Below are positions 1-38,883 of a stretch of DNA of 39,107 nt, piece by piece. This DNA comes from a virus (Duplodnaviria; Caudoviricetes). Location: the IMG/VR virus record IMGVR_UViG_3300042923_000456, positions 1 to 39,107 of that record; one strand, given 5' to 3'. The notes beneath the pieces are model-generated. The model was not told where the DNA came from, made no database searches, and saw only the letters and a list, made by a program, of their open reading frames with translations. How positions within the stretch are numbered: the stretch's first letter is position 1; each line of letters begins with the position of its first letter. Made by a program: the position numbers and the translations under genes.

Positions 1-127
1 ATCATATCCCTCGCATTTTCCTTCATACTGGTTTGGCATTCCTACCCCTAATGCAATAGCTTCTTTTATCACATTGCAATTTTCTAAAGTCTTTTTCACT
101 ACTATCACTCCTTCGCAATAATTAGCT
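1..127 (+). repeat. 127-bp exact terminal overlap (copy 1)
   Basis: 1..127 is identical to 38981..39107; an ORF reads through the junction. Confidence 0.97.
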
Positions 128-135
128 ATTGCGCA
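112..135. other. dif-like palindromic site A (9-6-9)
   Basis: TTCGCAATA-attagc-TATTGCGCA, overlapping the stop codon of 122..445. Confidence 0.65.
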
Positions 136-445
136 ATTCATATTCTTTATATAATTTAATCCAATCTTCCAAAGTCATTGTCACAAGCCATTCATGTCTA
201 TCTTTTCTATGAAAAACTGTAGGTAAATCATCTTTACTATCACTTTTAGCCTGGCTTATTGCATCGTATAAATTAAGCTTTTCAACTCTTTTGCATTCTA
301 TGTGAATGCCATTCAGACCCACCACATCAGCATCACCGTTCGAGCCGCAATATTGTTGCCCTCGTCTGCAATCATATCCATATTCTTTGAGCTTATTTGA
401 TAGTTCTCTTTCTCCTGCCGCTCCTTTACGTTTTGAATTAGTCAT
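122..445 (-). CDS. Holliday junction resolvase, PD-(D/E)XK Hjc-like
   Basis: SKRKGAAGERE...ADVV...IECK motif pattern. Confidence 0.8.
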   Translation of the reverse strand: MTNSKRKGAAGERELSNKLKEYGYDCRRGQQYCGSNGDADVVGLNGIHIECKRVEKLNLYDAISQAKSDSKDDLPTVFHRKDRHEWLVTMTLEDWIKLYKEYELRNS

Positions 446-810
446 AGATAAAACCTTCCTCCCATCATTCTTTTAATTATTTCTTTCTTTTCAAATTGTT
501 CATTTTTGCATGGTACTTTATGCATCAACTTATTAACCTCGTTCGTAGATATATCTAACAATTCCTTAATTTCGTGTACCGTGTATGATTCATTTGTAAA
601 AAGAAGTTCTAGTTTGAGCTGTAATTCCTGCTTATACTGTAAATCTATTTTTCGATTTTTATGAGGTGAGTCATTTCCTCTATGGTGACATTCGCATAAA
701 TATTTAAAATTTATTGGTATATTCTTCATCCAAGGTGCTGCACTTTTAAATACTATATGATGTAGCTCTGCATTATTTCTTCCGCATATTTCACACTCTA
801 TTCTAATCAC
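442..810 (-). CDS. HNH endonuclease-like protein
   Basis: CEICG...ELHHI...LCECHH...PH; start uncertain (possibly ATA at 801). Confidence 0.75.
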   Translation of the reverse strand: MIRIECEICGRNNAELHHIVFKSAAPWMKNIPINFKYLCECHHRGNDSPHKNRKIDLQYKQELQLKLELLFTNESYTVHEIKELLDISTNEVNKLMHKVPCKNEQFEKKEIIKRMMGGRFYL

Positions 811-920
811 CTCTTTATAATTAATTTAAAGCCTTTCTAATAGCTTTTATTTTGTGTCTATCCAAATGTACTTATTTTATGTTTACGCTTGTCCTGCGCT
901 TTATTGGCTATCATAAAACA

Positions 921-1094
921 CTATCTAAATCGTTTGCCCGAACTATTAACAGAATTAATAATTTTACCTCGCATAGAACCCTGGACAAGAAAGCACATTG
1001 CACCATTAATTTCTCTTTCTTTTTTCTTCTCTCGCTCTATCTTTCTTTTTTGTAGAGCATCATAAGTTAATCGAGCTTTCTCTTTATTTGTCAT
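921..1094 (-). CDS. Hypothetical basic protein, 57 aa
   Basis: Manually translated MTNKEKARLTY...; ATGA overlap with upstream gene. Confidence 0.6.
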   Translation of the reverse strand: MTNKEKARLTYDALQKRKIEREKKKEREINGAMCFLVQGSMRGKIINSVNSSGKRFR

Positions 1095-1351
1095 ATTTTA
1101 TCTAACGTAGATTTTACTATCTCAATTGCTTCTTTAAAGCTTTTGCCTTCCTCGTAAAGTTTAATTACTTTTCCTATTGCTACTTTAAGAGAATTAGATT
1201 CTTTCATAAAATACACAGCTTCTTTTTTAAGATCATTATTTTCTATTGCAAGTTCATCATTTACTTGTTTACTTTTTTCTAACTCACGATATGCATTAGC
1301 CGAATCTGGAAGATAATCACCTATCGGTTCTGCCTTATAATTTTTAATCAT
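1091..1351 (-). CDS. Hypothetical protein
   Basis: ORF in operon with SD. Confidence 0.7.
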   Translation of the reverse strand: MIKNYKAEPIGDYLPDSANAYRELEKSKQVNDELAIENNDLKKEAVYFMKESNSLKVAIGKVIKLYEEGKSFKEAIEIVKSTLDKI

Positions 1352-1939
1352 TTAAATATTCACGCTCCTTCTACCTTTTTTAATATTGTAAACTTCTTGT
1401 CTTATGCTATTTCTTGAATGTCCAATAACTTTAGCAATTTCACTGTATGATTTTCCATCTAGGCGCATTTCCATAGCCTTTATTCTGCTTTCTGTAGTCC
1501 ATTTTGTGGTAACTATATCCCCTTCTATTTCCATAGCTTCTTTGATGTTATAAACAGTTGTCCCAGTGCATCCTGCTTCTTTTGCTATATAATCAGCCTT
1601 AAACCCTTCTTTTAGCATTTTGATTATCAATTCAACATTAACAATTCGTCTGCTTACAACTGGTTTTGTTAAATTATACTTTTCAACGATTGTATAGTAA
1701 TGCATCTTAACTGCGTTGACTGTCCTATTGAGCTGTGCTGCAATCTTTTTATAACTAAGTCCGCTATCTCGTAACATTACAAGTTTTTTAGATTCTTCAT
1801 CAGTCCATCTTTCTTTTTGTGAAACTTCTCTTTCTGCATACATTCTTATAGATCCTAAAGGACAACCAGTGACTCTAGATATATAAACAAACTTTTCGCC
1901 ATCTTCTAATAATTTTTTTACTAATTCTCTATTTACCAA
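1352..1939 (-). CDS. Multi-HTH / Myb-like repeat DNA-binding protein
   Basis: Two WT-x-E...G-SY--IA--L/I-R/H repeats alternating with short HTH units. Confidence 0.65.
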   Translation of the reverse strand: MVNRELVKKLLEDGEKFVYISRVTGCPLGSIRMYAEREVSQKERWTDEESKKLVMLRDSGLSYKKIAAQLNRTVNAVKMHYYTIVEKYNLTKPVVSRRIVNVELIIKMLKEGFKADYIAKEAGCTGTTVYNIKEAMEIEGDIVTTKWTTESRIKAMEMRLDGKSYSEIAKVIGHSRNSIRQEVYNIKKGRRSVNI

Positions 1940-1945
1940 TTTTAA

Positions 1946-2737
1946 TCACCTCAATCTATAATTATTTTTAATGTTTTCTTCTATCTCAGCTGTGTAATCT
2001 TTGCACATTTCTATAATTCTACTGCCTACAGCTTCGTCAAAGTCCATTAACCTGTCCGCTGTATATTCGCTAGAAACTATAAGCGGTAAGTAATTTAAGT
2101 ACCTGTAATTAATAATCTCAAACATTATGTTTATATCAGATTCATTTACCTTCCCATTTTTCATAGCTCCCTTAAACAAATCATCTATTAACAAAACTTC
2201 ACATAATTGATATTTTCTAATTTTCTTGTTGTAGTATTCTTCATCTATCATATTCTGCTTAAATAATGTCAAAGTATCTCTGTAGGGCATATAGACCACT
2301 TCTATACCCTTCTTGATGAAATTCATCGCTAGAGCTATGCATAAATGTGTTTTGCCGCTGCCTACTTGTCCTATAAGTGCTATAGAATTTCTTCTAGTTG
2401 TTCTAACATTATTAAACTCTTTATAATATTTACTTGCCATTTCTTTCGCAAGTTTAGATCCTTGATTCCAAACTTCAAAGGTGCTAAATGTCTGCCTTGC
2501 TTGTTCAATGTTTATGCCTGATAACTTCAATATCTTTTCAGCCTTATCAACTTTCTGGCAAGAACATCTAGTCATTAAGTCCTGTGCATCTTCTCTGTGC
2601 GTTATTATCATTCCAGTATCTCGGCATTTATCGCACTTATAAGAGGTCTGAATAATCGGCTTCTCCTTCAAGTTTTGGTTTTGGAGCTTTGTATCCCTCG
2701 AACTTGCTATTAACTCCTGGAGCATTTTTAAATCCAT
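1946..2737 (-). CDS. DnaC/IstB-like helicase loader ATPase
   Basis: CDKCRDTG...CSC zinc site, Walker A GQVGSGKT, Walker B LLIDDLFK, SRIIEM. Confidence 0.92.
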   Translation of the reverse strand: MDLKMLQELIASSRDTKLQNQNLKEKPIIQTSYKCDKCRDTGMIITHREDAQDLMTRCSCQKVDKAEKILKLSGINIEQARQTFSTFEVWNQGSKLAKEMASKYYKEFNNVRTTRRNSIALIGQVGSGKTHLCIALAMNFIKKGIEVVYMPYRDTLTLFKQNMIDEEYYNKKIRKYQLCEVLLIDDLFKGAMKNGKVNESDINIMFEIINYRYLNYLPLIVSSEYTADRLMDFDEAVGSRIIEMCKDYTAEIEENIKNNYRLR

Positions 2738-3428: not shown

Positions 3429-3440
3429 TTAATCACCTTC

Positions 3441-3617: not shown

Positions 3618-3647
3618 TTAATCACCTTCTCAAATTTAAATTTTTCA

Positions 3648-5028: not shown

Positions 5029-5769
5029 TTAATATTTTTTCTGACATGTAAAACATAATGGCTTTTTAAATTTTCCAACAGAATAGTCGTGTATCTTTTG
5101 AGTTATGTCGCATTTGCAATCAATACATTTTAAAATATCATCTGTAGCGTTATTTGAAGCCGTAGGCGTTTGATTTGTTTGCTGACGTGTATTTGTATTC
5201 CCTTTATTTTTATCTTCTACAAAGTCGTTTAAATCAGTTTTGGGGGTAATGCCCATTTTAAATCTGCTTACTTTTTTATTATCTATAATTTCTAGCGCAT
5301 TAATTTCTCTTTGATCGTTGTAACCTATATTTTTAACTTGGAACTTTAGAAAAGAATTTACATTTACTTTATTATCTTTTTCATAGTACTCACCAGTTTG
5401 TAAATCAATCCAGATAAAAGGTGAGGTATACAACTCTCTGCCTATTCCTATATTAAATCCAGCTCTTTTAAAACTGTCTGAAGCTTGACCTTTTTCCTTT
5501 TCAGCGTTGCTTTCCACTCCTACATCTTGTTTTCTTACCCAAGTTTTTTTATCATCATCCCATATATCAATATTGCAAAATAGATTCCCGTTTATAACTT
5601 CGTGTGTTCTCTGCCATCCTCTTACTCCGTATTCTTCATCAAGTATTTTCATATCTACTCTTGCATCTTTATATAGCAGCAGAATACAGCCTACTGAACC
5701 ATTTGCTGTTTTTTTAGTACTTTGTACTCTGCACTCTATTTCATCAGCTCTTAACACTCTAATGCTCAT
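5029..5769 (-). CDS. Sak/Rad52-like single-strand annealing protein with C-terminal zinc finger
   Basis: LLYKDARVDM..LDE..G..GWQ, KGQASDSFKRA..GIGRELY; CxxC...CxxC tail. Confidence 0.82.
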   Translation of the reverse strand: MSIRVLRADEIECRVQSTKKTANGSVGCILLLYKDARVDMKILDEEYGVRGWQRTHEVINGNLFCNIDIWDDDKKTWVRKQDVGVESNAEKEKGQASDSFKRAGFNIGIGRELYTSPFIWIDLQTGEYYEKDNKVNVNSFLKFQVKNIGYNDQREINALEIIDNKKVSRFKMGITPKTDLNDFVEDKNKGNTNTRQQTNQTPTASNNATDDILKCIDCKCDITQKIHDYSVGKFKKPLCFTCQKKY

Positions 5770-9680: not shown

Positions 9681-9990
9681 TATGGTCATTGATGACTTTG
9701 AAAATGTAAAAGGCTATATGAAAATTCTACAGGACAGTGGTAAAATAAGAGTTGTGTACGAAAATTTTAATTCTTTATACGGCATGGTTTATAAAGGAAG
9801 AAACGAACAATATCTAATAATAATCAACTCAAGTTTGTGCATAGAAATGCAAAAAAGAATATATTGGCATGAGTCAAAACATATATATTCTCACATTTTG
9901 CATGAGGGCGACTGTATAACCTTCGAGAAAGAAGCAATTGAATTTAGCGATTACGCAATAACTATAGGAGATAATATCGTCGAATTATGA
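9681..9990 (+). CDS. ImmA/IrrE-like metallopeptidase (anti-repressor)
   Basis: IIINSSL...HESKH...E.EA..F; between repressor and integrase; start probably ATG at about 9682. Confidence 0.75.
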
Positions 9991-11492
9991 AAAGGATTGC
10001 AATATATAGTAGAAAAAGTAATTATGAAGAGAATAGTAATAGTACAAGCAATCAAATTAAGATTGTAAAAGATTATATGTCCAGGTATGGGGAATGTGAG
10101 TTCCTTGTATTTGAAGATGAAGGGTTTTCCGGGGGGAATACCAAAAGACCTGACTTTCAACGTATGCTTAATATGATAAGTAATAATAAAATTGACATAG
10201 TTGCAGTATACAAAATAGATCGTATTGCTCGTAATATAGTTGATTTTGTTAATACATATGATTTACTGCAAACATATAATGTAGGTCTTATAAGTGTTAC
10301 TGAAGCTTTTGACCTCACAACTGCAATGGGAAAAATGATTTTATTTGTGCTGGCAACTTTTGCAGAGCTTGAAAGAGATAATATTAAGCAGCGTATTAAA
10401 GATAACAAGATAGAAAATGCCAAGCTTGGTAGATGGGTAGGGGGCGGTGTCCCCCTTGGTTATGAGTCTATAGATGTTAACGAGAATGGTAAGATAAATA
10501 AATATCTAAAAATTGATGAAAGTAAAGCACCAATAATAAGAGATTTATATAGTAAGTTTATAGAGCTTCAAAATCTATCTATGACCAGCAAGTATATGGT
10601 AAAAACTTATGGTATTTTAAACACTGTTACGTCGCTTTCTAGGGTTCTTAGAAATGCAGCTTATGTTGAGTCTACTAATGAAGTTGTGACGTTCCTTAAG
10701 CGTAATTTTGAGGTATATGGAGAACCTAACGGCAAAGGGTTACTTTTGTACGGCAATAAAAGCAAACATAAACAAAATGTAGTTGAATTTTATGCTATCA
10801 GCAAGCATGATCCTATAATAGATGCTGAAACGTGGCTTAAAGTTCAACACTTAATTTCTACGCGGAAAATAGCTCAAAAGAATTGGTCGCATATGTCGTT
10901 TTTGAGCGGTCTTGTATTTTGCCCTTACTGCGGTGATAAAATGTGGCTATCAACATCAGGTTATCATGGTAAAATCTATTTTAGCTATAAGTGCCACAAC
11001 ACTAAATCGGGAAAATGCAGTAATAAATCTATAGCATCTTATAAATTAGAAAACGAGCTTATTGAAATGCTAACACAATACACAGTTAGTAAGAAAGCTT
11101 TCTTAGCTACATTTGAATTATTCCGTCCAGCAAATGAATATAATAAAGAGAAGTTAATAGAAAAAAACATAATTAAGAAAACTAAAGAGATTGAAAAACT
11201 TACAGAACAGTTACTTAAATTTGACGGTGCTGCTCTTGAGGTTGTAACTTCTAAAATCAATATATTGTCAGACGATATTAAAAGTTTAAAAGAGGATTTA
11301 TTTGTAATAGAAAAATCAAAAGCTTTTGATGATAACAAAAATATAAATTACGAATATGTATTTGATCAATTTAAAGTGTTTTTAAACACATTTGATTCGC
11401 TATCTGTAGAAGATAAAAGGCTTTTCTTAGGTAAGTTAATCAAGGCTATACACTGGGACGGTATAAACTACAGCGCTAAAGTTATAATCTAG
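9987..11492 (+). CDS. int: Large serine integrase
   Basis: IAIYSRKS catalytic motif, DEGFSG..RP, KIDRIARN, recombinase domain, CPYCG...C...C zinc ribbon and coiled coil. Confidence 0.96.
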   Translation: MKRIAIYSRKSNYEENSNSTSNQIKIVKDYMSRYGECEFLVFEDEGFSGGNTKRPDFQRMLNMISNNKIDIVAVYKIDRIARNIVDFVNTYDLLQTYNVGLISVTEAFDLTTAMGKMILFVLATFAELERDNIKQRIKDNKIENAKLGRWVGGGVPLGYESIDVNENGKINKYLKIDESKAPIIRDLYSKFIELQNLSMTSKYMVKTYGILNTVTSLSRVLRNAAYVESTNEVVTFLKRNFEVYGEPNGKGLLLYGNKSKHKQNVVEFYAISKHDPIIDAETWLKVQHLISTRKIAQKNWSHMSFLSGLVFCPYCGDKMWLSTSGYHGKIYFSYKCHNTKSGKCSNKSIASYKLENELIEMLTQYTVSKKAFLATFELFRPANEYNKEKLIEKNIIKKTKEIEKLTEQLLKFDGAALEVVTSKINILSDDIKSLKEDLFVIEKSKAFDDNKNINYEYVFDQFKVFLNTFDSLSVEDKRLFLGKLIKAIHWDGINYSAKVII

Positions 11493-11591: not shown

Positions 11592-11615
11592 TGCGCAATT
11601 TGAAATTATTGCGAC
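11592..11615. other. dif-like palindromic site B
   Basis: TGCGCAATT-tgaaat-TATTGCGAC. Confidence 0.65.
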
Positions 11616-11637
11616 TTTGAAAGGAGATAAAAGTTGT

Positions 11638-11784
11638 ATGAATGAATATGTGATTGTATATAAGGCTGATATTTATAGAGAAACTACTATAATAGCAAAC
11701 AATAAGAAAGAAGCTATGGACAAGTTTAGAAAAGAAGTAGGAGTATATGGAGTTTGTTCGTGTGAATTAGCTGACGAAGATTAA
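11638..11784 (+). CDS. Hypothetical protein, 48 aa
   Basis: MNEYVIVYKAD... with AAGGAG SD. Confidence 0.7.
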   Translation: MNEYVIVYKADIYRETTIIANNKKEAMDKFRKEVGVYGVCSCELADED

Positions 11785-11803
11785 TTTTAAGGAGGAAAAA
11801 TAA

Positions 11804-11962
11804 ATGAATAAAGTTAAAAGAAGTGCAAAAGAAGGAGAAACAATAGAAATTATAAAAACAGGAGAAGTTAAGAAGGTTAAATTTACTTTTATGGGTGGGG
11901 TTCATGTAGCTGATAATCACCTTACAAGTTTTTTAGATGATGAATATTTAGTTTTAGAGTAG
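11804..11962 (+). CDS. Hypothetical protein, 52 aa
   Basis: MNKVKRSAKEGE...EYLVLE with AGGAGG SD. Confidence 0.72.
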   Translation: MNKVKRSAKEGETIEIIKTGEVKKVKFTFMGGVHVADNHLTSFLDDEYLVLE

Positions 11963-11986
11963 TTCGTAATTCAAGAATATTTTGAA
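11963..11986. other. dif-like palindromic site C
   Basis: TTCGTAATT-caagaa-TATTTTGAA, immediately after a stop and running into the next SD. Confidence 0.6.
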
Positions 11987-14340: not shown

Positions 14341-14487
14341 TTATTTTGATTTAAAATGTTCCAATAACTCTTCTTTATTCTTGTCTCTTGCTCTATATGT
14401 GTAATATTCGTTATTTATAACCATTTCAACATGGTCTAAATCTTTCATACATTTCATCAAATACCATATGGCTATTCTTTTTATCAT
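14341..14487 (-). CDS. Hypothetical protein, 48 aa
   Basis: MIKRIAIWYLMK... with AGGAGG SD. Confidence 0.65.
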   Translation of the reverse strand: MIKRIAIWYLMKCMKDLDHVEMVINNEYYTYRARDKNKEELLEHFKSK

Positions 14488-15048: not shown

Positions 15049-15192
15049 TTACGCCGTATACTTGCTTACTATTTTATCTAATTCTCTATTTAAAGATTCC
15101 TTAAGTCCTGTTTTATTAGCTTCTTTCGATGCCCACTCTAAAGAAAGATCAAGTATTCCTAAGCATTTCCGCAATTCCTTATTACCCTTCAA
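15049..15192 (-). CDS. Hypothetical protein, 47 aa
   Basis: TTG start overlapping the antirepressor stop, AGGAG SD. Confidence 0.6.
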   Translation of the reverse strand: MKGNKELRKCLGILDLSLEWASKEANKTGLKESLNRELDKIVSKYTA

Positions 15193-16025
15193 ATCACTCC
15201 TTTCTGACTGGTTAGAAAATTTAAAGCTACTAGTTCTTCTTTATAAACTACCTTAAAGGTCTTTTTATTACCTTTAATTTCTGTAGGTTTACCATTATCA
15301 TATAGCCAGTTCTTTACCTTTTCTATAACACTTTCAGAATATTTAGTAACAGTTCCTTGCCAGTTAGATGTGCTTTCCCATACAGATGCCATTTCATCTT
15401 CTTCTATATCTAGCTTATCAATTATTGCAGTTACAGCTTGACCATGAGGTTTATTTGATGTGCTGTATAATCCTATCTTTTTAGCTATTCCTAATCCGTC
15501 GTAATAACTTTGCTCTGATACTACATCAATAGGAAGGTCTATTCCTGCAGCTTTATATATTGTTTTGGTTATTAATGCTTGAGACATTGTGCTAACTCCT
15601 GCAGCTTGTGCTATTCCTAGTAAGAATTGACAATTTTCTAACGCTTTATCTGGAGATAATCCTTTAAATGCAGTTTGAGCCACTTGCGCAATCTTCTTAA
15701 CTTTAAAGTAGGTATCTTCTAGCTGTTCGTATACGTCCCAAGCTTCATCAGTATCAAGTATTTTTGCGTGTCTTGCAGCTCCCATTTCAGTCCATAGATA
15801 CAGAATAGATACGTATTTAAGGCTTTCATCATTAAGATGATACCCTTTAAATTGCTTTAATTCTTCTCCTTCAAGCCTGTAATAATGTTTACCTTCAACA
15901 AATCGTGCTATATTCCTATTAAAGTTATTGCTTATTATTTTATCTTCTGTCCCAAATTGTTCTGCTAAAACCGCTGTTGTCATTATTCTTTGATTTTTAA
16001 ATTCGATTGGCATTAATTGATTCAC
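15189..16025 (-). CDS. ORF6N (KilA-N-like) domain antirepressor
   Basis: IEFKNQRIMTT..LAE..G...NFNRN..RFVEGKHY...LYLWTEMGAARHAKILDTDEAW. Confidence 0.88.
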   Translation of the reverse strand: MNQLMPIEFKNQRIMTTAVLAEQFGTEDKIISNNFNRNIARFVEGKHYYRLEGEELKQFKGYHLNDESLKYVSILYLWTEMGAARHAKILDTDEAWDVYEQLEDTYFKVKKIAQVAQTAFKGLSPDKALENCQFLLGIAQAAGVSTMSQALITKTIYKAAGIDLPIDVVSEQSYYDGLGIAKKIGLYSTSNKPHGQAVTAIIDKLDIEEDEMASVWESTSNWQGTVTKYSESVIEKVKNWLYDNGKPTEIKGNKKTFKVVYKEELVALNFLTSQKGVI

Positions 16026-16058
16026 TATAAATTCCTCCTTTTAATTCACCTAGAGGTA

Positions 16059-16145
16059 TGCTATAATGAATTTGCATATCTTCTAGATGTGCTGTTTAAG
16101 AAAGCTTATTGCGTTTGGTTGCGGGTAGGCTTTCTTTATTTTTTG
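16059..16145 (+). ncRNA. Putative antisense sRNA (sar-like) with its promoter
   Basis: Extended -10 TGcTATAAT at 16059-16067 and hairpin plus T-tract at 16098-16145 on the + strand, opposite the ant leader. Confidence 0.5.
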
Positions 16146-16282
16146 ACTATCTCCCCATACAAATCTTCTTTTATCTTTTCAAGAATATAGTCTTTTAATG
16201 AAATTCCTCTTTGGGCTATATATACTTTTATATCTTTATGCAATTCTTCGTCAATTCGTATGGTAATAGTTTTTTCTGGCAT
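16136..16282 (-). CDS. Arc/Mnt-like ribbon-helix-helix repressor, 48 aa
   Basis: KTITIRIDEELHKDIKVYIAQRGISLKDYILEKI; GGAGGTG SD. Confidence 0.82.
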   Translation of the reverse strand: MPEKTITIRIDEELHKDIKVYIAQRGISLKDYILEKIKEDLYGEIVKK

Positions 16283-16298
16283 ATTCTCACCTCCTATT

Positions 16299-16330
16299 TA
16301 CAGTATATACTGCAATACTGCATAAATCAA
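16299..16330 (-). promoter_or_regulatory. Promoter of the RHH-ant operon with overlapping operator repeats
   Basis: TTGATT-17-TATACT; TGCAGTAT direct and inverted repeats over spacer and -10. Confidence 0.75.
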
Positions 16331-16438
16331 GAGGTAATTGCAAATAAATAAAATAAATTTTCCTCAAAATGTTGGGGAAACTAAAAGAAGTAGATTTCTC
16401 TACTTCCTCTTATATTTATTTATAGTGTTTTTGCGCAT

Positions 16439-17125
16439 CTAATCTGCTTTATTATTTTCGTATATTAATACCATGCACAATATTGCAACTATGACAGCGG
16501 AAAAATATAATACAAGTGTGAAAAGCCACGAATCATTAATATACATTCCTGTATATAAAAGCAAAGCACCTATAACTATGTATATTATACTTATTGCTAT
16601 AGAAAGAATTAGACTTGCTACAAATTTATATTTAGGAACTATATATGCAAATGTTAGAATTATTGTGCCTGTTCCAACTATTGCATCTAGAAGCAAATTA
16701 AGTGGCTCATAATTAATATTTATATATCTACTCAATGAAAACATATAAACGAATCTAACTGCTAGATTTGCTAGCCAAGCTAACGGAAATGCAAGTATCC
16801 ATCTTAGCCAATTAGGGAGCCTTAATATACCTTCTTGTATGCTTTCTTCTTTTACTTGGGGTGCTTGTTCTGTTGCTGCCTGCTCTGTATAACTTTCTCT
16901 AGCCACTTGTTCTTCTGTTAATTGGTCATTGTATTGATTTCTCCACTCGTCATTTGTCAATACTTCTCTTGCATAGTTTAATTGTTTCATATATTCTTCT
17001 GCTTGCTCCCTATATTGCTGGTCTACTACATCAGGATGATACTTTGAAGCAAGAGTTTTATATGCCTTTTCTATGATGTCTTTTGATGCATTTCTACTAA
17101 CTTGAAGCAGTTCGTAAAGGTCCAA
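16439..17125 (-). CDS. J-domain (DnaJ) membrane protein
   Basis: DLYELLQV...IEKAYKTLASKYHPD...LNYAREVL...R.QYND, then four TM helices. Confidence 0.88.
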   Translation of the reverse strand: MDLYELLQVSRNASKDIIEKAYKTLASKYHPDVVDQQYREQAEEYMKQLNYAREVLTNDEWRNQYNDQLTEEQVARESYTEQAATEQAPQVKEESIQEGILRLPNWLRWILAFPLAWLANLAVRFVYMFSLSRYININYEPLNLLLDAIVGTGTIILTFAYIVPKYKFVASLILSIAISIIYIVIGALLLYTGMYINDSWLFTLVLYFSAVIVAILCMVLIYENNKAD

Positions 17126-23427: not shown

Positions 23428-24123
23428 TTATAACAATCTGTAGTATAAAGCACCATTGTTGATACCTGTAACATATTTATCGGTTGTTGTATCGTCCATT
23501 ATTGCATTATTGGCACAATCAATAAACCATACATTTCCCGTCATAGATTGCGCTTCTGCAAAAGAGTAAGGTGTAGTTAAAACAATATCTTTACCATTCT
23601 TTGTATTCATTGTTAGTAGGGAACTATACTTAACAATAACTGTTCCACTGCTATAATTCTTAACTATTCTTACTTTTTGTGGTTTTGTAGTTATAAAATT
23701 ATTAATTTGAACAACTCCGCCACCAGTTGTATTTGTGTATATTACATCGATATTTGAAACATCTAAATTGTCATATGTTCCTGCTGTTAATGTTAAAAGT
23801 CTATTCCTAAAATTACTTGCCATTTTAGCATCCGTCAAGGTTCCGTCTGGAATACCACCTAATACATAAGTACTAAGCTGGCTTTTAAGTTCAGCTAAAG
23901 CTGCTTGAACTTGAGTCGCTGTAAGTCCTCCTATTGCTGATATTGGTATATTACTAGCTATTAATTGAGGTATCAGAGTGCTATTGATATAATCTTGAAT
24001 ATCAATAGCAGCTTGGTCAAATTTAAGTTTAAGTTGAGCTGGTGTCAAATTATCTTCTTGATTAGGTCTATCGCTTAAAGATTGAATTGTATCTATTGAG
24101 CCAGTATAATTAGTAAATGCCAT
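23428..24123 (-). CDS. Tail fibre / fibre adaptor protein
   Basis: LSDRPN...LTPAQLKLKFD N-terminus, ATQVQAALAEL, IPDGTLTDAK motifs. Confidence 0.65.
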   Translation of the reverse strand: MAFTNYTGSIDTIQSLSDRPNQEDNLTPAQLKLKFDQAAIDIQDYINSTLIPQLIASNIPISAIGGLTATQVQAALAELKSQLSTYVLGGIPDGTLTDAKMASNFRNRLLTLTAGTYDNLDVSNIDVIYTNTTGGGVVQINNFITTKPQKVRIVKNYSSGTVIVKYSSLLTMNTKNGKDIVLTTPYSFAEAQSMTGNVWFIDCANNAIMDDTTTDKYVTGINNGALYYRLL

Positions 24124-24135: not shown

Positions 24136-25905
24136 TTATTTCGACATACCACCAGATAATGCTGGTAGATTTATATTTAATATAGTCATAGAATCCGTTA
24201 AGCTGTCATTTGATATTATTAATTTAAAATAGGTAAATTTCTTTGCCTTAAGCTTTAATCTAAATGGATGAGGTATTGATATAGTTTCAAAACTAAAGTC
24301 GCCAAAATCAACATTTGTAAAGTTAGCTAAGTTGTAAGAAATAATGTCAGGATCACTGCTTGTTGAGTAATCTGTTTGCCACTCTACAAAACATATGCTT
24401 TTAGTTTCTGGTTGAAGTCCCACCCATCCAAAGTTTATAAACTTTCTTTTGTTGTTTTCTCCAAAATCTAAGAACCCTGTTTCTAGCTTAGAATGAATTA
24501 TTTCTCCATTATCGTCTGTCATTAGCCCATACTCACCAAACTTCATTATTTGCCCTGTGGTAGTTCCAAAATATAACTCATTGTCTATCTCAATAAAACA
24601 TGTTGGCGTGTTGTATAGCTCAAATTTATACCATACATCAAGCCTATAATTGTAAATATAAATTATTTTACCTACTGCAAGCCAATATTCAGCAGCCTTA
24701 ACATAATCAAAAGTTATAGCATTAGTTAAATCCAATTCATCCAAGGCTAATTGAACCCTTTGTGATTTTAATACCGCATTTCTTTCATCTCTTACATTAG
24801 TAGCCACCCATTCATATACTCCATTGTATATAGAGAACGGATTATTTTGAATTAACTGACTTTGTCCAAAAGCTACGTTTCCACGCTCTTGGTTTAATGC
24901 GAAAACAGGAAATGAAGCTATTACATTGTCGTTAACATCTGTTATTGCATCATAGTAAGTAAACCAGGTATCATTTTCGGTATAAATAATAGCTCTATCA
25001 TATTGTCTTATCATGTCTGTAACTGCAAATTGGCTAGAACCTACTTTATTATTATTAAACTCTGGAAAGTATTCTGCTGAAGGTAACCCATCTGCTAAAG
25101 CGCTAAAGTAAATTGTATTCTTATCGTCTAGATTCCCCCATATGTGTACTCTTGTATCCGAAGCACCTCCAAATATTAAAGCCTTTTTATTCTTATATAC
25201 TTTACTTCTTTGTCCTGAGCCTTTTGCCCATCCTATATCAACATTATCTTGTCCTGTTGCAGGAGCTGAGGTAAATGTTATTGTTCCAGTAGTTAAATTA
25301 ACAGTATAATCAGTAGTTAAAGTTTTAGTAACTCCGTTTACTTTTACAAAATCAATGCTTGCTACATTTGCTTCAGCTATAAAATAAGCTGTAGCAGTTC
25401 CATCAGCATTAAAAGTTTGATGTTTCTCGCCTGTCAGCATATTTATTTCTTCGTATAAAGTTCCTCCGCCTGCTGGAGGTGTTCCAATTGCAACTTTAGG
25501 TCTATACCCTGCTACATCTTCTATACTTCCTGTTCCTGCCCATTTCTTATAAGATGAACCGTTCATTATATACAAATTATCGTTGAACGCAAAAAAGAAC
25601 GTCTTAGCATCTGTAAGTGTTCCTAAATCTGTATTTACATTTGTAGTCATATTTTGTTCATATACATGTCCATTACAAGCAAAAACAAAATGATAAGTAT
25701 TAGATAGTTTACCGTACCACATACCTTGTATATTTTTTGAAGCTATACTTGCAAATAACTCTTCATAACCTTCTCTTTTACGAGGTTTATAATTCTCTGT
25801 TATCCTTATGTTTTTACATTCAGATAATTCTCCAACTTTTAAATTTGTATCTCCTGTAGCATCTAAGTGAATGCCAAGGAAATGATCTATTAATACAGTT
25901 GACAA
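24136..25905 (-). CDS. Tail nozzle / DNA stabilisation protein (P22 gp10 / T7 gp12-like)
   Basis: About 590 aa beta-propeller-like, KREGY near N-terminus, follows adaptor; internal DYTVNLTTGTITFTSAP domain; TTG start likely. Confidence 0.75.
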   Translation of the reverse strand: MSTVLIDHFLGIHLDATGDTNLKVGELSECKNIRITENYKPRKREGYEELFASIASKNIQGMWYGKLSNTYHFVFACNGHVYEQNMTTNVNTDLGTLTDAKTFFFAFNDNLYIMNGSSYKKWAGTGSIEDVAGYRPKVAIGTPPAGGGTLYEEINMLTGEKHQTFNADGTATAYFIAEANVASIDFVKVNGVTKTLTTDYTVNLTTGTITFTSAPATGQDNVDIGWAKGSGQRSKVYKNKKALIFGGASDTRVHIWGNLDDKNTIYFSALADGLPSAEYFPEFNNNKVGSSQFAVTDMIRQYDRAIIYTENDTWFTYYDAITDVNDNVIASFPVFALNQERGNVAFGQSQLIQNNPFSIYNGVYEWVATNVRDERNAVLKSQRVQLALDELDLTNAITFDYVKAAEYWLAVGKIIYIYNYRLDVWYKFELYNTPTCFIEIDNELYFGTTTGQIMKFGEYGLMTDDNGEIIHSKLETGFLDFGENNKRKFINFGWVGLQPETKSICFVEWQTDYSTSSDPDIISYNLANFTNVDFGDFSFETISIPHPFRLKLKAKKFTYFKLIISNDSLTDSMTILNINLPALSGGMSK

Positions 25906-25906
25906 G

Positions 25907-26845
25907 TTACCACCACCCACCGTATACGTCTTGTATTTCGTCTATAGTTGAGGGTTGTTTAATAAAAGATTCTGCCTTTAGTTGGTTATATTTACTTGTT
26001 AAAACATTGGTCATAAATTCGTTTTGCTCTGCTGCCATGAAGTTTTTAGCTAATTCATAAGCTATAATATTAACATTTATATCATCTAATTCTAAAGTAT
26101 CTGTTAATGCTGTTATTTCTGTAGGTATATAATTGTATTCAATTTTTAACTCTCCATTAAAATCATACTCTACATATAGACTTTGTCTATTCCCTTCATG
26201 CTCGACTTTATAATTAGCAGTTTTAACATATTCTTTTATAGGATATTCAGCTACAACTTGTTTTATTGATTTTAAATCTGCTGGCAACTCCATTTCGACC
26301 CAAGGCGCATACTCTGGAGCAACTTGCAAAGGATAATTAAACAATGCTCTATTAACAATTCTAAAATAGTATGTTCCTGTTGCCCTTATTCTTGCCTTTG
26401 TAGCGCCATTGGTAGGTGTGACAATACCTTTGTATGCCGTGAATCCTGCGACCGTTGGCGAAGCTGCTACAGTAGCTAAAACGTTCCATGTATTTGTGTA
26501 ATCCTCAATGTATACTGTACAAGGTTTATCAACTTCAAAGTAATAAGCTTTTACACTTCCAAATTGATTTATATTACCTTCATATGTTAATTCTATCCCT
26601 TTATAGTCATCTATTCTGTATTGGTCTCCTAGCATATTGGGAATAGGACTATAAGCAATTCTATATATTTTATACAAGTTTCCAGCTGAAGCTAATTCTT
26701 TTTGAATCATATCTATTAAAGAAGGAGCCTTACCGGCATAATCCTTTGTTTTATTTGCATCTATTCCGCCTGTCGCAGACAATTCGTCTATTAGAGCCAA
26801 TGACTTTTTATATATTTGTTGTGCTGTTGTGCTAATTTTAATCAC
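25907..26845 (-). CDS. Head-tail adaptor (P22 gp4 / T7 gp11-like) with inserted beta domain
   Basis: Helical termini, ELPADLKSI motif, position before nozzle; start may be ATT at 26836. Confidence 0.7.
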   Translation of the reverse strand: MIKISTTAQQIYKKSLALIDELSATGGIDANKTKDYAGKAPSLIDMIQKELASAGNLYKIYRIAYSPIPNMLGDQYRIDDYKGIELTYEGNINQFGSVKAYYFEVDKPCTVYIEDYTNTWNVLATVAASPTVAGFTAYKGIVTPTNGATKARIRATGTYYFRIVNRALFNYPLQVAPEYAPWVEMELPADLKSIKQVVAEYPIKEYVKTANYKVEHEGNRQSLYVEYDFNGELKIEYNYIPTEITALTDTLELDDINVNIIAYELAKNFMAAEQNEFMTNVLTSKYNQLKAESFIKQPSTIDEIQDVYGGWW

Positions 26846-26854: not shown

Positions 26855-26878
26855 TTCGTAATTTATTCCAAAAACGAA
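26855..26878. other. dif-like palindromic site D
   Basis: TTCGTAATT-tattcc-AAAAACGAA directly after the spike stop codon. Confidence 0.6.
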
Positions 26879-28297
26879 TTAGTACAACTCTACAGTTCCA
26901 CCATTTACTACATAGTAAGATTCTTCAAAATCACAATTTCTTAAATACATATTACCATTGTCGTTCCATATTGAATAGGGTGAATTAGATGATTTACAAG
27001 CTTCATTCCACATTTTGCAATCTGAACCATACATAAGAAAAAAATCACCTCTATTTATTGATTGAGCCAAAGAATCATGAGCATCGCAAGCAATATTCCA
27101 AGTTCTATTTCCTGGGCTTACATCTGCAACATTTGGTCCGACATTATGATGATATTCACCATTTAGCCTAATAATCGACCCGCCTTCATGCATTGTAGAA
27201 CCATTATCAGTATCATCAGACGCATGTCCATTGTGCCTACCTACGCAGTTTATTTCTATTACTTTTGGTTTTACATTATTCAGCGCATGATAATTAAAAC
27301 CATCCTCATAGGCTCTCGCAGCTAAACAATTTTCTACCACTACCAATGATGCACCGTCTATATCAAAAACATCCTGACTGCTTGTATATTTGAATTTGCA
27401 ATTTTTTGCGAACACTTCAAGATTTTGTCCTGCTCCAGTATTTTTAAACCAATTAGTTCCACCTTCTAATTTTAGATTTTCAATATATATTTTTATGTTA
27501 CCGCTTGCCACTAAATTATTAACATTTACATATGATACTATCTTAGCTTGCTCTGCCGTCAATCCTGTAAGGTCTCTTGAGTCCGCAGGATGAACGAATA
27601 TATATGAACCAGTTGTATAGTAAGAACCAGGAGTATTATTTGCTACTGTTAAATCAGTTTGCTTTGTAAGTTTAGTATAGTCTCCATTTGCATCCAACAC
27701 ATTAGTATCATAAACAGCCAAAGTGCCTATTACCCGTGTAGTTCTGTACAAATTAGGATTTGCAGAAGAAATAAAATCGGTCAATACATCACTTGTGTCA
27801 CATATAACACTATCGCCAAGACCTATTATATTTATGTTTTTTGTTATAGCAATACCATTAAAGCCACTGTCTTTATTATATCCACCATTGGCTAAATATA
27901 TTGTAATAACATCACTTTTCGCAACTGCGGTTTGTATATTTTTTAAAGCCGTACCCAGCGTTAATCCGTTGTTTGTATCATTACCGTTCACAACATCAAC
28001 ATAATAAGATGCTCCGCCAGTATTTTTATTTAATGCAATATTATAATCCGTAAAATATACACGATTAAAATCTCTATATATATTAATAGGTGCTTCCCAA
28101 GTAAATTCGCTTGGTCTTTGTAATGTATATCTTCCTGTCATTATTGCATTCGTCATTTCAGCCAATTGCGACTTAAGCTGTCCAGGTTCATCACTCAATT
28201 TATAATCTGTCAACGTACCGTCTGGAATCTGACCTAATACAACGTCTTGTAATTCTTCCCTTACTTTATTTATCTTGCCTTGATTAATTATGTCCAT
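26879..28297 (-). CDS. Right-handed beta-helix spike / receptor-binding protein
   Basis: YYVDVVNGNDTNNG..ALKNIQTAV cap, then DGFNYH, NGSTMH parallel beta-helix repeats. Confidence 0.78.
   Translation of the reverse strand: MDIINQGKINKVREELQDVVLGQIPDGTLTDYKLSDEPGQLKSQLAEMTNAIMTGRYTLQRPSEFTWEAPINIYRDFNRVYFTDYNIALNKNTGGASYYVDVVNGNDTNNGLTLGTALKNIQTAVAKSDVITIYLANGGYNKDSGFNGIAITKNINIIGLGDSVICDTSDVLTDFISSANPNLYRTTRVIGTLAVYDTNVLDANGDYTKLTKQTDLTVANNTPGSYYTTGSYIFVHPADSRDLTGLTAEQAKIVSYVNVNNLVASGNIKIYIENLKLEGGTNWFKNTGAGQNLEVFAKNCKFKYTSSQDVFDIDGASLVVVENCLAARAYEDGFNYHALNNVKPKVIEINCVGRHNGHASDDTDNGSTMHEGGSIIRLNGEYHHNVGPNVADVSPGNRTWNIACDAHDSLAQSINRGDFFLMYGSDCKMWNEACKSSNSPYSIWNDNGNMYLRNCDFEESYYVVNGGTVELY
28149..28172. 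other. dif-like palindromic site E, in frame within the spike gene
   Basis: TTCGTCATT-tcagcc-AATTGCGAC; encodes SQLAEMTN on the - strand. Confidence 0.65.
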
Positions 28298-33740: not shown

Positions 33741-33741
33741 T

Positions 33742-35906: not shown

Positions 35907-35952
35907 CAATGCCACCTCCTTATATCATCCAATATAAAATCTCTCCTTTATA

Positions 35953-36090
35953 AATAAAAGAGCAGCTTATATGCCACTCTTAATTAATTCCAAATTAAAA
36001 TAGCTGGGCATCACTCCAGCTATCTCTTACTAAGGGGAACTGCTTTGACTCTATTAGAGGTTTGATGTGGTCTCTTTCGGAGTCATCTTA
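35953..36090 (-). promoter_or_regulatory. Structured late leader with two terminator-like hairpins
   Basis: TGACTC...GAGTCA stem, ATAGCTGG...CCAGCTAT and AAGAGTGGC...GCTGCTCTT hairpins between late promoter and terS. Confidence 0.55.
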
Positions 36091-36097
36091 TGTTATA

Positions 36098-36142
36098 AGT
36101 ATATCACGTATTTTCAATAGTTGACAGGCTATTCTATAGGCT
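36098..36142 (-). promoter_or_regulatory. Late promoter, probably activator-dependent
   Basis: TGaTATACT extended -10, no consensus -35, AGCCT direct repeats upstream. Confidence 0.55.
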
Positions 36143-36159
36143 CAATTTATATTTATATT

Positions 36160-36579
36160 TCATTCATTTTGGCTCCTTATTTTATTCTCTATTCTTCTTA
36201 CATGTCTATCGCCTATTCCTATTATCTCTGCCACCTTCTCTTGGGTTAATCCTATTGCTCTAAGCTGTCTTACTTTAATTGTTATGTCCGATATATTTTC
36301 TATACAATTATCTATTATATTTTTCTTTGTAGTCAAATCTTTTAATAGTTTCTTTTCTTCTTCCATAAGTGTCTTAAACATAATAGCTTTACACATTACT
36401 CTAGATGCATCTGGAAGGTCTTTTGAACCATGGGGCATGTCTGAGTATTGTTGTGCTGTAAGTTCTTTAGGTTTCCACCCGATTATTTTATCATTCCAAT
36501 AATTAAAACTTATCTCATGACTTTCCATAAGATTCTTATGTAGTTCTATCTCGTCTATTAGTTCTTTATATCCATTCAT
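36160..36579 (-). CDS. Late transcriptional activator (RinA/ArpU-like, C-terminal HTH)
   Basis: YSDMPHG motif, GLTQEKVAEIIGIGDRHVRRI; last gene before terS. Confidence 0.8.
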   Translation of the reverse strand: MNGYKELIDEIELHKNLMESHEISFNYWNDKIIGWKPKELTAQQYSDMPHGSKDLPDASRVMCKAIMFKTLMEEEKKLLKDLTTKKNIIDNCIENISDITIKVRQLRAIGLTQEKVAEIIGIGDRHVRRIENKIRSQNE

Positions 36580-36833
36580 ATCTCTTTGTAACCTCCACAT
36601 GTTTTACAATCGCCCTTACATCTTTTCTTGCAAGTTCTTCCGCAGTCGCAGCAAGCTTTTTCATAGCATTCAGTCTCCCAGTTATATATGCATACCCATT
36701 CAGTATTTTTTCTTTGTTTTACTTTTTCTTTTTTTCTTAACTCTTTTTCTTCCTGTCTACTACATTTACTGCTGACTTTAAATACGCACATAAACATTGC
36801 CGCTATTATTATGCAGATAAAGAGTATTAACAT
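36576..36833 (-). CDS. Membrane-anchored Cys-rich hypothetical protein
   Basis: N-terminal TM, Cys cluster. Confidence 0.65.
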   Translation of the reverse strand: MLILFICIIIAAMFMCVFKVSSKCSRQEEKELRKKEKVKQRKNTEWVCIYNWETECYEKACCDCGRTCKKRCKGDCKTCGGYKEI

Positions 36834-36845
36834 TTTAAAAACCTC

Positions 36846-36992
36846 CTAACTTTCACTTACTTTGATTGCTGCATCTAGCTCCTTTAATGCTTTTTCAGAA
36901 TCTTTTTTTACATTTAAACCGCCAGTTACTCTAACTATTTTTAATGAACTTCTGATAGTGTTAATTGTCTCTTGGTTGATTGTTATATTCAT
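36846..36992 (-). CDS. Hypothetical protein
   Basis: Start moved to ATG after GGAGG (MNITINQ...). Confidence 0.6.
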   Translation of the reverse strand: MNITINQETINTIRSSLKIVRVTGGLNVKKDSEKALKELDAAIKVSES

Positions 36993-36993
36993 C

Positions 36994-37488
36994 TTAGTAC
37001 CCCTCCAGTTGCCTTTTAAGATTCTTTTCATATTTCTTGTAATATTCAGCTTCCATTTCCTCAAGAGTGATTCCTAATGCAAACCCTAAACAAATTATTG
37101 CTATTAAAGGACTTCCCGTGCCTGTACATTCTTTATAGGCGTTTAAGAATGCTGCGTCTATATTATCAGTTTTATTCTCTGGTCTTTTCTCTACTTCACT
37201 CACTTTTTTCATAAATTCATTTAAATCTATCTTTGCTAATATTCCCTCATTATTTTCTAAACTTAAAGCAAAATGCAAGCAATCTGCGAACTCCTCAAGT
37301 ATTTTACTTCTATCAATCTTCTTATTTTTCTTCCAATACTTAAAATGTTTAACCTCGTTTGCCAACTCTCCAATTTCTACTAGCAGAGCATTCCAAACCT
37401 TTAAAACAGGATATTCTGTTATCCCATGATTCTTAAATATTATCTCGTCAAGCTTAGCTTGATCTATTAACATTTGTTTTAAATTCAT
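36994..37488 (-). CDS. dut: Dimeric (all-alpha) dUTPase
   Basis: Q..LD, ALLVEIGELANE...FKYW, LEEFADCLHFALS, Y..K...N..RQ..GY. Confidence 0.9.
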   Translation of the reverse strand: MNLKQMLIDQAKLDEIIFKNHGITEYPVLKVWNALLVEIGELANEVKHFKYWKKNKKIDRSKILEEFADCLHFALSLENNEGILAKIDLNEFMKKVSEVEKRPENKTDNIDAAFLNAYKECTGTGSPLIAIICLGFALGITLEEMEAEYYKKYEKNLKRQLEGY

Positions 37489-37493
37489 CAATA

Positions 37494-38087
37494 TCACTCC
37501 TTAATTTTTATAGGGTAAACCTTGTACATTTTTTCAAATTCTTTTAAACCTTTTAGCTTTGCTTCGTCATGGTGCTTGTTACAAAGAGATATTTTATCTT
37601 TACCAACTGTGTAAATTACTCCTGCATCTCCACAGCAGCAACATACACTTTTCTTTATTGTTATATATAGATACTTATTAATGTCATCTGTACGCTCTAT
37701 AATGCTCTCAGAGGGTGGTATTTGATTATCTATACAGAACTCTATCAAGTAAGATATAAACTCTCTAGCGACCTCTAGGCTGCAATTTGATAAGCTTATA
37801 TGTTCTATATCATTCTCAGTGCAATACATAAACTGTAATATGTCTCTTAAGTATTCGGGTTCATCCCCAGTGTAAAGAGAAATATCTCTGATAGTTGCAA
37901 ATATCTTCTTTCTTTGCTCTGCTGTTATTCTTCTGTCGTCGTCAAATCTTAACTCTCCAGTTATTGCACCTTTATTCAAATATTTCTTTATATCTTCTAC
38001 AGTAGCATCTAAGGCAATCTGTAGAATTATTTTCCCTTCTATTTCTTTCATGTTTATTACTTTTACAGATTGCCATAGTTGTTTCAT
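37494..38087 (-). CDS. DUF968 / putative HNHc nuclease family protein
   Basis: DDRRITAEQRKKIFATIRDI, SLSNCS..AREFI, CCCCG...LCNKHH. Confidence 0.78.
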   Translation of the reverse strand: MKQLWQSVKVINMKEIEGKIILQIALDATVEDIKKYLNKGAITGELRFDDDRRITAEQRKKIFATIRDISLYTGDEPEYLRDILQFMYCTENDIEHISLSNCSLEVAREFISYLIEFCIDNQIPPSESIIERTDDINKYLYITIKKSVCCCCGDAGVIYTVGKDKISLCNKHHDEAKLKGLKEFEKMYKVYPIKIKE

Positions 38088-38127
38088 ATATGCTCTCCTT
38101 AAGCCAGATTTTTCTTGCAAGTGCGTC

Positions 38128-38394
38128 TTAATCTATCATCCACATAAAATGTTCTATGGCTTTTATTTTCGCTTCATTTAAGCTACAATCTTTATAATAT
38201 GCTACTGGTGATTCAAGAAGCAACTTATCATCAATGCCATACTCTTTATGTCTTCTGATAGATAAATAAAATTTATAGCCTGTTTTATGGGGTTTTAAAT
38301 ACAATCTAAATCCATTAAAATAATCAGATAAGATTCTTTTTTCATTGTTTCTACTATCATAATGCCATACATTATATACAAACTCTTGTTCCAA
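38128..38394 (-). CDS. Hypothetical protein
   Basis: ORF in early operon. Confidence 0.65.
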   Translation of the reverse strand: MEQEFVYNVWHYDSRNNEKRILSDYFNGFRLYLKPHKTGYKFYLSIRRHKEYGIDDKLLLESPVAYYKDCSLNEAKIKAIEHFMWMID

Positions 38395-38409
38395 ACTCTC
38401 ACCAACTTT

Positions 38410-38883
38410 CTAATTCGTAATGTGTTTATATGCAGAGCATATTTTCGGACAAGTTTTAAGTTGACATTCATATTGCGCTAATATTTGTCCATAGGGTTCA
38501 TGACCTTCTTTATACTCTCTCTTGATAAGCTTAATATCCTTACCCATGTGACAAGGCTTTGTACATGCTGTCCTTATCTTTTCAGATTCATCTTCATATA
38601 CTTCTAATCTAGCTCTTACCTCACAAAATCCTACACAAGCCCAATACATTATACTTAATAGCGAATCATCATCCATTAGTTCTCCAAAGTTCTCAGCAGT
38701 CCAAGTATCATCTAAAGAATCATCATATAGCCTGTTGTATTCTTTTTTACAATATTCCACTAAGCTTATGTCCTCTTGATTTTCTCCAAGTCCTCTTAAA
38801 TAAACCTCATTATTTTTACCAAAAACCATGTTTAGCATGTTCTCTGTCATTCCTTTAGGCTTGTTAGTAGTTAATCTTTTCAT
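38410..38883 (-). CDS. Hypothetical protein
   Basis: MKRLT...RLEVYED pattern common in Bacillota phage accessory genes. Confidence 0.7.
   Translation of the reverse strand: MKRLTTNKPKGMTENMLNMVFGKNNEVYLRGLGENQEDISLVEYCKKEYNRLYDDSLDDTWTAENFGELMDDDSLLSIMYWACVGFCEVRARLEVYEDESEKIRTACTKPCHMGKDIKLIKREYKEGHEPYGQILAQYECQLKTCPKICSAYKHITN
38414..38437. other. Degenerate dif-like site F
   Basis: TTCGTAATG-tgttta-TATGCAGAG at the 3' end of 38410..38883; one arm good, one weak. Confidence 0.4.

Follow-up and report, generated by a model that had tools for sequence, protein, structure and literature searches.

The window analysed here is the whole 39,107-nt stretch of the IMG/VR virus record IMGVR_UViG_3300042923_000456 (Duplodnaviria; Caudoviricetes), a complete circular phage record with a terminal repeat of 127 nt and 32% GC, in which a palindromic site of two 9-bp arms around a 6-bp spacer recurs at gene boundaries. 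The phage encodes a CI-like repressor and a large serine integrase, indicating a temperate lifestyle, and also a P22-like portal, an Erf-like annealing protein, a RusA-like resolvase and an endolysin with a clostridial ChW repeat. Since mosaic similarity further links it to phage G106 (57% for the endolysin, 82% for an early gene), the host is presumably a member of the Clostridia. An original prediction, made from the DNA sequence, had described six sites, A to F, as a dif-like 9-6-9 family arranged in three pairs (A/F, B/C and E/D) and used for cassette exchange driven in trans. All six strings were located with correct coordinates and orientations, and the assignment to gene ends, gene starts and one domain junction was correct for A to E (Table 1).

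The sites were scored with position weight matrices against shuffled controls, and A to E came out as the top five of the circular genome, with F at the shuffle level. In a leave-one-out matrix with spacer 6, A, B, E, C and D reached 21.0, 20.6, 20.3, 13.3 and 12.5 bits, respectively, with zero better non-sites, and F reached 3.6 bits with 16 non-sites scoring better. A matrix built from 119 sites in other genomes ranked A to E 1-5 of the circular genome at 15.8-25.0 bits, scores reached in none of 30 shuffles, and ranked F 47th at -5.4 bits, a level at which shuffles yielded 34-61 hits; because the outside sites had been collected with a consensus originally drawn from A to E, this matrix tests F better than it tests the consensus itself. 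With a softer matrix F obtained 3.1 bits versus 16-25 for the members. Another candidate site, at 14407, also gave a background score and was rejected like F. Both arms fit the single consensus TTCGYAATW. These results demonstrated that the window carries five members, far above chance, of a family with the consensus TTCGYAATW-N6-WATTRCGAA, forming the two pairs E/D and B/C plus an unpaired A; because F scores as background there is no A/F pair, and no partner for A was found within the window.

Table 1. Positions of the sites, their cargo and the recombination genes in the window.
Feature	Coordinates	Strand	Description
Site A	112..135	-	Spacer GCTAAT; overlaps the stop of the RusA-like gene and abuts the ribosome-binding site (RBS) of the next gene (38912-39088, across the terminal repeat)
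Site B	11592..11615	+	Spacer TGAAAT; 5' end of a two-gene cassette, 100 bp past the serine integrase, precedes an RBS
B/C cargo	11617..11962	+	Two small open reading frames (ORFs), ~50 aa each
Site C	11963..11986	+	Spacer CAAGAA; immediately past a TAG stop, running into an RBS
Site D	26855..26878	-	Spacer GGAATA; immediately past the tail-spike stop
Tail spike/fibre gene	26879..28297	-	472 aa: 42-aa anchor, site E, 430-aa receptor-binding or hydrolase part
Site E	28149..28172	-	Spacer GGCTGA; in frame (SQLAEMTN), spike codons 43-50, anchor/tip junction
Site F of the original prediction	38414..38437	-	Not a member, background score
Large serine integrase	9987..11492	+	Sole site-specific recombinase detected in the genome
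Erf-like single-strand annealing protein	5029..5769	-	phrog_1097, E 6e-20

The members lie at gene junctions and are oriented with transcription, as stoperators and operators are, and their five spacers mutually differ at at least three of the six bases in both orientations. In the spike gene, PHROG matches to tail fibres and hydrolases begin at aa 72-92, and tblastn matches were found to tail fibres of Staphylococcus, Bacillus, Klebsiella and other phages, most of which, among the matches listed, begin at aa 52-72. The two ORFs between B and C have no PHROG or Pfam match. As had been predicted, the phage lacks a tyrosine recombinase: no PF00589 match was found anywhere in the window genome, nor in any of the 70 ORFs scanned, and the recognisable site-specific recombinase is the serine integrase, which is not likely to act on sites with a 6-bp spacer. 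The same absence of PF00589 matches was observed in 8/29 near-complete site-bearing phages, the window included, and any tyrosine recombinase working on these sites must therefore be supplied from outside.

The family extends well beyond the window. The exact motif was found at 106 IMG/VR loci versus 49 loci together for the same arms with spacers of 7, 8 or 9 (~16 per control length), a ratio that does not count independent events since many of the 106 loci are related low-GC phages. At two mismatches, 50 of 51 records (49 picked for holding a site, the window and G001) contain the motif, mostly twice or more, with counts of 0-1 for the control pattern. A scan of 35 of the 64 parts of GTDB yielded at least 122 loci, among many chance hits, including Intestinibacter bartlettii, Clostridium culturomicium, C. 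acidisoli and other Bacillota; C. acidisoli holds 114 copies at two mismatches vs 14 for the control. Most of 151 Clostridiaceae genomes are at the control level and a few are rich (G242, G285, G007, G290, G317, G303 and G210), and the distribution among 63 mostly Peptostreptococcaceae genomes is likewise patchy. The motif thus occurs in prophages and chromosomes of both families, with flanks reassorting on the chromosomes too. BLAST of the site regions against cultured phages gave no site-spanning match among the matches listed. A single metagenome-assembled genome of Candidatus Desantisbacteria also has many exact pattern matches (L149, L150, L185, L200, L202, L208 and L221). As for the window itself, no close relatives were obtained with a 312-aa gene, nor with the capsid protein in GTDB genomes; capsid relatives are mostly 59-89% identical, and of those scanned for sites (L003-L015 and G001-G004, with metagenome capsid loci lying outside that scan) G001 alone has a pair, a degenerate E/D pair.

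Each position in the window has a spacer that recurs at the corresponding position in unrelated phages with differing flanking genes, namely GCTAAT (A), TGAAAT (B), CAAGAA (C), GGCWGA in frame (E) and a GGA-type spacer at the stop (D). Phage G106 carries GCTAAT between unrelated genes (L408:11255), GGCAGA in frame in a tail protein, GGAAAA at a stop and CAAGAA; GCTAAT is also present in L165. TGAAAT sites past a stop and before an RBS were observed in G111, G070 and, in degenerate form, G113, and G114 has TGAATT. The C-like downstream partners are CAAAAA or CAAAGA in G111, G070, G091 and G090, and in G111 and G070 TGAAAT is followed by CAAAAA, the two enclosing different small genes; the B/C cargo of the window gave no tblastn match at E<1e-5 to the cargo that these two phages carry between the same spacers. 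The E-type pattern occurs at 22 IMG/VR loci, and GGCTGA stands in frame also in G001, in a G007 prophage and in others, ahead of different C-terminal domains. In the G001 spike, EQLAEIMN with GGCTGA is followed by a beta-helix domain unrelated to that of the window, with a weak GGATAA site at the stop. Thirteen E-class ORFs, those of the window and G001 among them, continue for 300 aa or more past the site; in 8 of these a D-like site lies no more than 6 nt from the stop (p <=0.03, with one ORF having been in the scoring pool).

The positions at which flanking similarity ends were compared in the best-sampled class, in which spacer TAAAGA stands in frame (SQFKDIAN) and TAAAAA downstream. The 52 in-frame TAAAGA-class sites combine 14 classes of left flank with 22 of right flank in 36 different ways. 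For pairs of 57 non-redundant sites, 48 share the left flank only, 36 the right only, 6 both, 1,424 neither, and 82 are intermediate; in 77 of the 84 one-flank-sharing pairs the change point lies 0-5 nt outside the far arm. The order is also fixed, the in-frame class being followed by the TAAAAA class on the same strand in 38 of 40 stretches from 38 phages, and the remaining two stretches stop at a record edge. Furthermore, 174/571 alignment ends lie at a site in both partners vs at most 8 expected; the other 397 lie away from sites, which indicates that tail proteins shuffle at other junctions too. Whole cassettes are shared from the 5' site to the 3' site: L483 and L511 have 1,271 bp at 97.2% and nothing else in common in the compared stretches, and L506 and L507 have 3,657 bp at 98.1%, a stretch that starts within a spacer whose first three bases differ. 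Flank sharing stays within one spacer class in 196/198 pairs, and the two exceptional pairs link TAAAGA with TAAAAA, classes one base apart. One TAAAAA site (L495, G099:127300-131900) has the left flank of TAAAGA-class sites and lies 211 bp ahead of a TAAAGA site, and is likely to record a cross-address event at one mismatch, judging from its flanks. The predicted coincidence of synteny breakpoints with the sites was thus found, in this sister class; a crossover pinned within the 6-bp spacer was not.

Behind the in-frame site, 14 of 18 translations (one of them a short mis-set frame) gave a Pfam match, and the cargo includes phosphoesterase, GH16, GDSL esterase, pectate-lyase-like, beta-helix, leucine-rich repeat, Ig-like and CotH domains; the phage cargos have no common terminal sequence beyond the site. 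Small genes on Peptostreptococcaceae chromosomes are bracketed by a GTTATA site, itself preceded by promoter-like sequence, and a TTAATA site that terminator-like sequence follows; of the pairs formed by 64 chromosomal sites, 33 share one flank only, some of them within one genome.

Three further arrangements of the sites were noted. L191:3043-7003 (G117) is an integron-like array that begins right behind a 308-aa serine recombinase gene, with four to five sites, three of them with spacer GACCGC, separating small uncharacterised ORFs. Clostridium acidisoli G008 (L374-L376, L575-L580) has a ~540-bp repeat resembling a miniature inverted-repeat transposable element, with 100 BLAST pieces genome-wide and a motif copy at either end, the inner arm being fixed and the outer arm and spacer variable. 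In G047 (L338, L353), a Tn554-like trio of two tyrosine recombinase genes and a 126-aa gene lies between two GTTATA sites.

Where the site is translated, codon choice follows the palindrome. In 11 in-frame copies that fail the exact pattern, whose loci were found with up to a few mismatches allowed, the Ala codon is GCG in 10/11. A codon-degenerate scan of 301 Clostridiaceae genomes, with counts taken among the matches listed (12 of 13), showed that, of the six hits that begin with Ser or Thr, five use CAA TTG together with GCG/ACG; these five fall in the first 31-292 codons of long ORFs in which the codon background is TTG 49/255, GCG 8/162 and ACG 23/213. The in-frame copies thus keep rare codons, which demonstrates that the dyad is conserved as DNA. 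The same kind of scan for SQFKDIA in 112 Peptostreptococcaceae genomes gave no match.

From this pattern we infer enzymatic, site-specific recombination by a two-step route: A to E are probably crossover points for a trans-acting tyrosine recombinase, with exchange taking place between co-resident genomes that carry the same spacer. A first crossover at a matched site would join the phage to a prophage, plasmid or chromosome, and the join would be resolved, with the interval swapped, by a second crossover at a different matched site. In this way the receptor-binding part of the spike could be exchanged through E, in frame, and D, at the stop, with the anchor left in place; small accessory genes carrying stop-site-RBS joints could be exchanged through B and C, and A could work together with any further matched site. 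Deletion or inversion of the phage's own cassettes is not expected, given that its five spacers differ from one another; the unlike spacers would guard the genome against self-deletion. Such a spacer-matched double crossover is likely to account for the fixed spacers, the fixed order, the reassortment of flanks and the sharing of whole cassettes. Of the predicted exchange in trans, the real family, the breakpoints at sites and the missing phage tyrosine recombinase held up, and the A/F pair did not; nor did recombination between the two sites of one pair, with its excised circles, find support, as their spacers differ at three or more of six bases in either orientation.

The candidates for the enzyme were compared across site-rich and site-poor genomes. 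Among the recombinase loci scanned, no integrase is consistently adjacent to sites. A 302-aa recombinase, which we take to be RecV-like, and a 371-aa integrase are both absent from the site-rich G007 and G008 and present in site-poor genomes, and each was rejected as the unique explanation. The 371-aa integrase (L343, L344, L346, L351, L593), which lies near the XerS-like gene in 38/63 genomes and has its own upstream palindrome and repeats, is possibly a domesticated integrase. A ~200-aa resolvase group and a 295-315-aa recombinase of 130-140-kb phages are patchy and have no cognate site directly up- or downstream. A 327-367-aa accessory phage recombinase was rejected as the unique explanation on the same grounds; it is found within a few kb of sites in some phages and is kept as a second lead. 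The XerS-like protein is the sole family present in nearly all site-rich genomes examined, with its catalytic residues intact. Upstream of the Clostridiaceae XerS-like gene lies a palindrome, NNCGYNAAA-N6-TTTNRCGNN, in a pattern drawn from four of the site-rich loci, which is perfect in 8/12 loci of site-rich genomes and 21/29 others. It has the 9-6-9 build and the outer ends TTCG, TGCG or GTCG as in A to E, at 2-6 mismatches from the motif, and the description of the sites as dif-like proved apt in this respect. This palindrome (L683-L712, L335, L582, L626-L630) is probably the clostridial dif; for C. perfringens str. 13 and C. beijerinckii, the accessible text of PMC3025954 contains no dif prediction. 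The cassette motif itself was rejected as the host dif, as the separate palindrome adjoins the XerS-like gene. The host XerS-like recombinase or a relative is the best lead for the enzyme, a lead rather than a result, which we hold tentatively on the basis of gene content and arm resemblance. Broadened to a clostridia-wide cassette exchange, in which this protein or a close relative would recombine a dispersed sister of dif with the 6-bp spacer as a shared address code, the proposal is possible and still on the doubtful side.

Several observations weigh against crossover by such an enzyme. The sharp breakpoint statistics come from the TAAAGA/TAAAAA sister class and not from close relatives of the window, and their pairs are non-independent. 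In the left-flank-sharing pairs both arms are equally conserved, so that the crossover is not pinned to the spacer. G001, the closest relative, has degenerate E- and D-like sites only, with no match at two mismatches. A D-like site is missing from the stop of 5 of the 13 long E-class ORFs; two of the five have one at least one gene further on, and three have none. Site A was found at 0/63 loci carrying the RusA-like gene, and a tie between the two was rejected; as site E is also absent from a spike-domain relative (L419), the sites follow host lineage and not particular genes. No recombined joint or excised circle was found at any site in the contigs assembled from runs X1 and X2, although such contigs cannot prove that none exist. 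As to the enzyme, no candidate tracks site presence. The XerS-like gene is also present in 28/29 site-poor Clostridiaceae, its palindrome always has A where the cassette arms have T (position 8), and the Peptostreptococcaceae counterpart is 7-10 mismatches from the motif. The complete, site-rich G036 has four tyrosine recombinases only, all common to site-poor relatives. XerD/RipX was rejected as the unique explanation, being present in 58/63 genomes and not found in the site-rich G007, and Lys replaces its first catalytic Arg in 10/11 copies read; clostridial orthologues (L330, L337, L623-L633, L660-L668) are also without the His of HxxR, and the two changes suggest that the protein may be catalytically impaired. 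Finally, annealing at short homology would leave equal breakpoints at a conserved 24-mer.

An explanation along that last line is that the 24-mers are short boundary homologies for general or phage annealing recombination, with the palindrome kept for another reason and the spacers kept by the need for identity. It predicts the same breakpoints and spacer classes, the window supplies an Erf-like protein and a RusA-like resolvase for it, no site-specific enzyme was found, most alignment ends (397/571) are not at sites, and recombination at boundary sequences is a proposal made in the available part of PMC3029335. We nevertheless judge it unlikely, because it leaves unexplained why dyad arms are shared at unrelated positions around a strict 6-bp spacer, why rare codons preserve the symmetry and why the arms resemble the palindrome of the XerS-like gene. 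Moreover, 24 bp is short for homologous recombination.

The sites could instead serve a host or phage transcription factor as operators or stoperators, recombination being incidental. In phages they lie between a stop and an RBS, and on chromosomes they follow closely on promoter-like sequence, which fits such a role, and mycobacteriophages have multi-copy intergenic repressor sites according to the accessible text of PMC3029335; yet the motif recurs in unrelated phages and in chromosomes of two families and so does not belong to one phage's repressor, one copy lies inside the tail-spike ORF at a domain junction, and binding gives no reason for position-specific spacers or for flank reassortment at the edge, all of which makes this explanation improbable. 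Even less probable is that the sites mark the termini of small mobile elements, which an integrase or transposase would move with no regard to spacer identity, and that the phage sites are scars or targets: the G008 repeats with a motif copy at each end and the G047 trio between two sites have this appearance, whereas in the phages and on Peptostreptococcaceae chromosomes each position has its fixed spacer and flank sharing is nearly confined to one class, and the phage cargos have no common termini beyond the site. That assemblers joined different phages at a common 24-mer is hardly credible, even with most phage records being metagenomic contigs, because the same left/right combinations recur in frame across several contigs, sites with shared flanks are also present in bacterial genome assemblies (twice in one G056 contig), and the window is a single contig in soil run X1, possibly its source, with near-identical pieces, at low depth, in run X2, though none among the pieces listed spans a member site.

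Some neighbouring features of the window were also recorded. A 46-nt repeat, 80% identical, lies at 23821-23866 and 28196-28241 (IPDGTLTD peptide), in the anchors of two tail proteins. A virion protein at 24136-25920 has 30-34% identity to proteins of the Bacillus megaterium podophages Pascal, Page, Pony and kin, and a second antirepressor (ORF6N) and a DnaJ-domain membrane protein are encoded at 15189-17125, between the virion and lysis genes.

The clean swapping of receptor-binding domains by temperate phages is usually ascribed to illegitimate or short-homology recombination. Here the junction peptide (SQLAE.. or SQFKDIAN) is a translated dyad of recombinase-site geometry, also found outside genes and on host chromosomes. 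Should the clostridia-wide exchange be true, unrelated phages, prophages and chromosomes would swap like for like via the spacer address: spike tips would be exchanged in frame whatever the anchor ahead of them, accessory genes as stop-to-RBS intervals, and chromosomal genes as promoter-to-terminator intervals. Confirmation of the enzyme would mean that gut and soil clostridial phages have a dedicated, address-coded way of changing host range and passing on genes; dif modules would gain a Gram-positive counterpart, and the spacers of the sites would offer a natural orthogonal set for cassette exchange. No description of the motif or system was found in the full-text literature searched, subscription journals and preprint supplements being mostly beyond its reach.

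The closest comparison is with the pdif, or dif, modules of Acinetobacter Rep_3 plasmids, on which XerC/XerD act (PMC13141974). According to the available text of that source, pdif sites also have two arms around a 6-bp spacer, their recombination needs identical or one-off spacers, and modules are replaced via a cointegrate and a second crossover by a host enzyme in trans, as is proposed for the A to E family; exchange within identical or near-identical spacers is common to both, here on comparative evidence alone (196/198 pairs). Unlike pdif, as described in the same text, with its asymmetric XerC arm and XerD arm, inversely oriented sites and alternating C and D modules on plasmids, A to E have symmetric arms, are co-oriented with transcription and differ by spacer. 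The carriers here are clostridial phages and chromosomes, and with one site translated in frame the module is a protein domain. The likeness to XerS/difSL, as presented in the accessible parts of PMC1914069 and PMC5357621, lies in a near-symmetric site of a single-enzyme type. In contrast to a XerS-type dif, a single copy beside its gene, the sites are dispersed, with up to 114 copies per genome at two mismatches, and bracket cargo, and their arms have AATW where the Clostridiaceae dif-like palindrome has NAAA.

Integron cassettes are promoterless small genes. The stop-site-RBS joints, the L191 array of same-spacer sites and the promoter-like sequence upstream of chromosomal 5' sites are similar; unlike integrons, no integron integrase lies beside the sites among the recombinase loci scanned, and the sites are short dyads of double-stranded type with position-specific spacers. 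The Gin, Cin and Pin systems and Rci shufflons invert DNA within a genome between matched inverted sites, with alternative tail ends on board. An in-frame site in a tail gene would likewise change the receptor-binding end here, but the window has a single site E and neither an alternative end, a matched inverted site, an invertase nor a tyrosine recombinase, so that a new spike end must come from another genome. Action in trans on dispersed sites has a precedent in the C. difficile chromosomal tyrosine recombinase RecV, as reported in the accessible text of PMC5903667. Phage boundary sequences and the domain shuffling of receptor-binding proteins, as treated in the available parts of PMC3029335 and PMC10684548, also involve exchange at conserved junctions, strongest in host-recognition proteins; those parts describe no dedicated site, and 'site-specific' does not appear in that of PMC10684548, whereas such a site is present here. 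The system works like dif modules, yet it is no pdif, chromosomal dif, integron or inversion switch.

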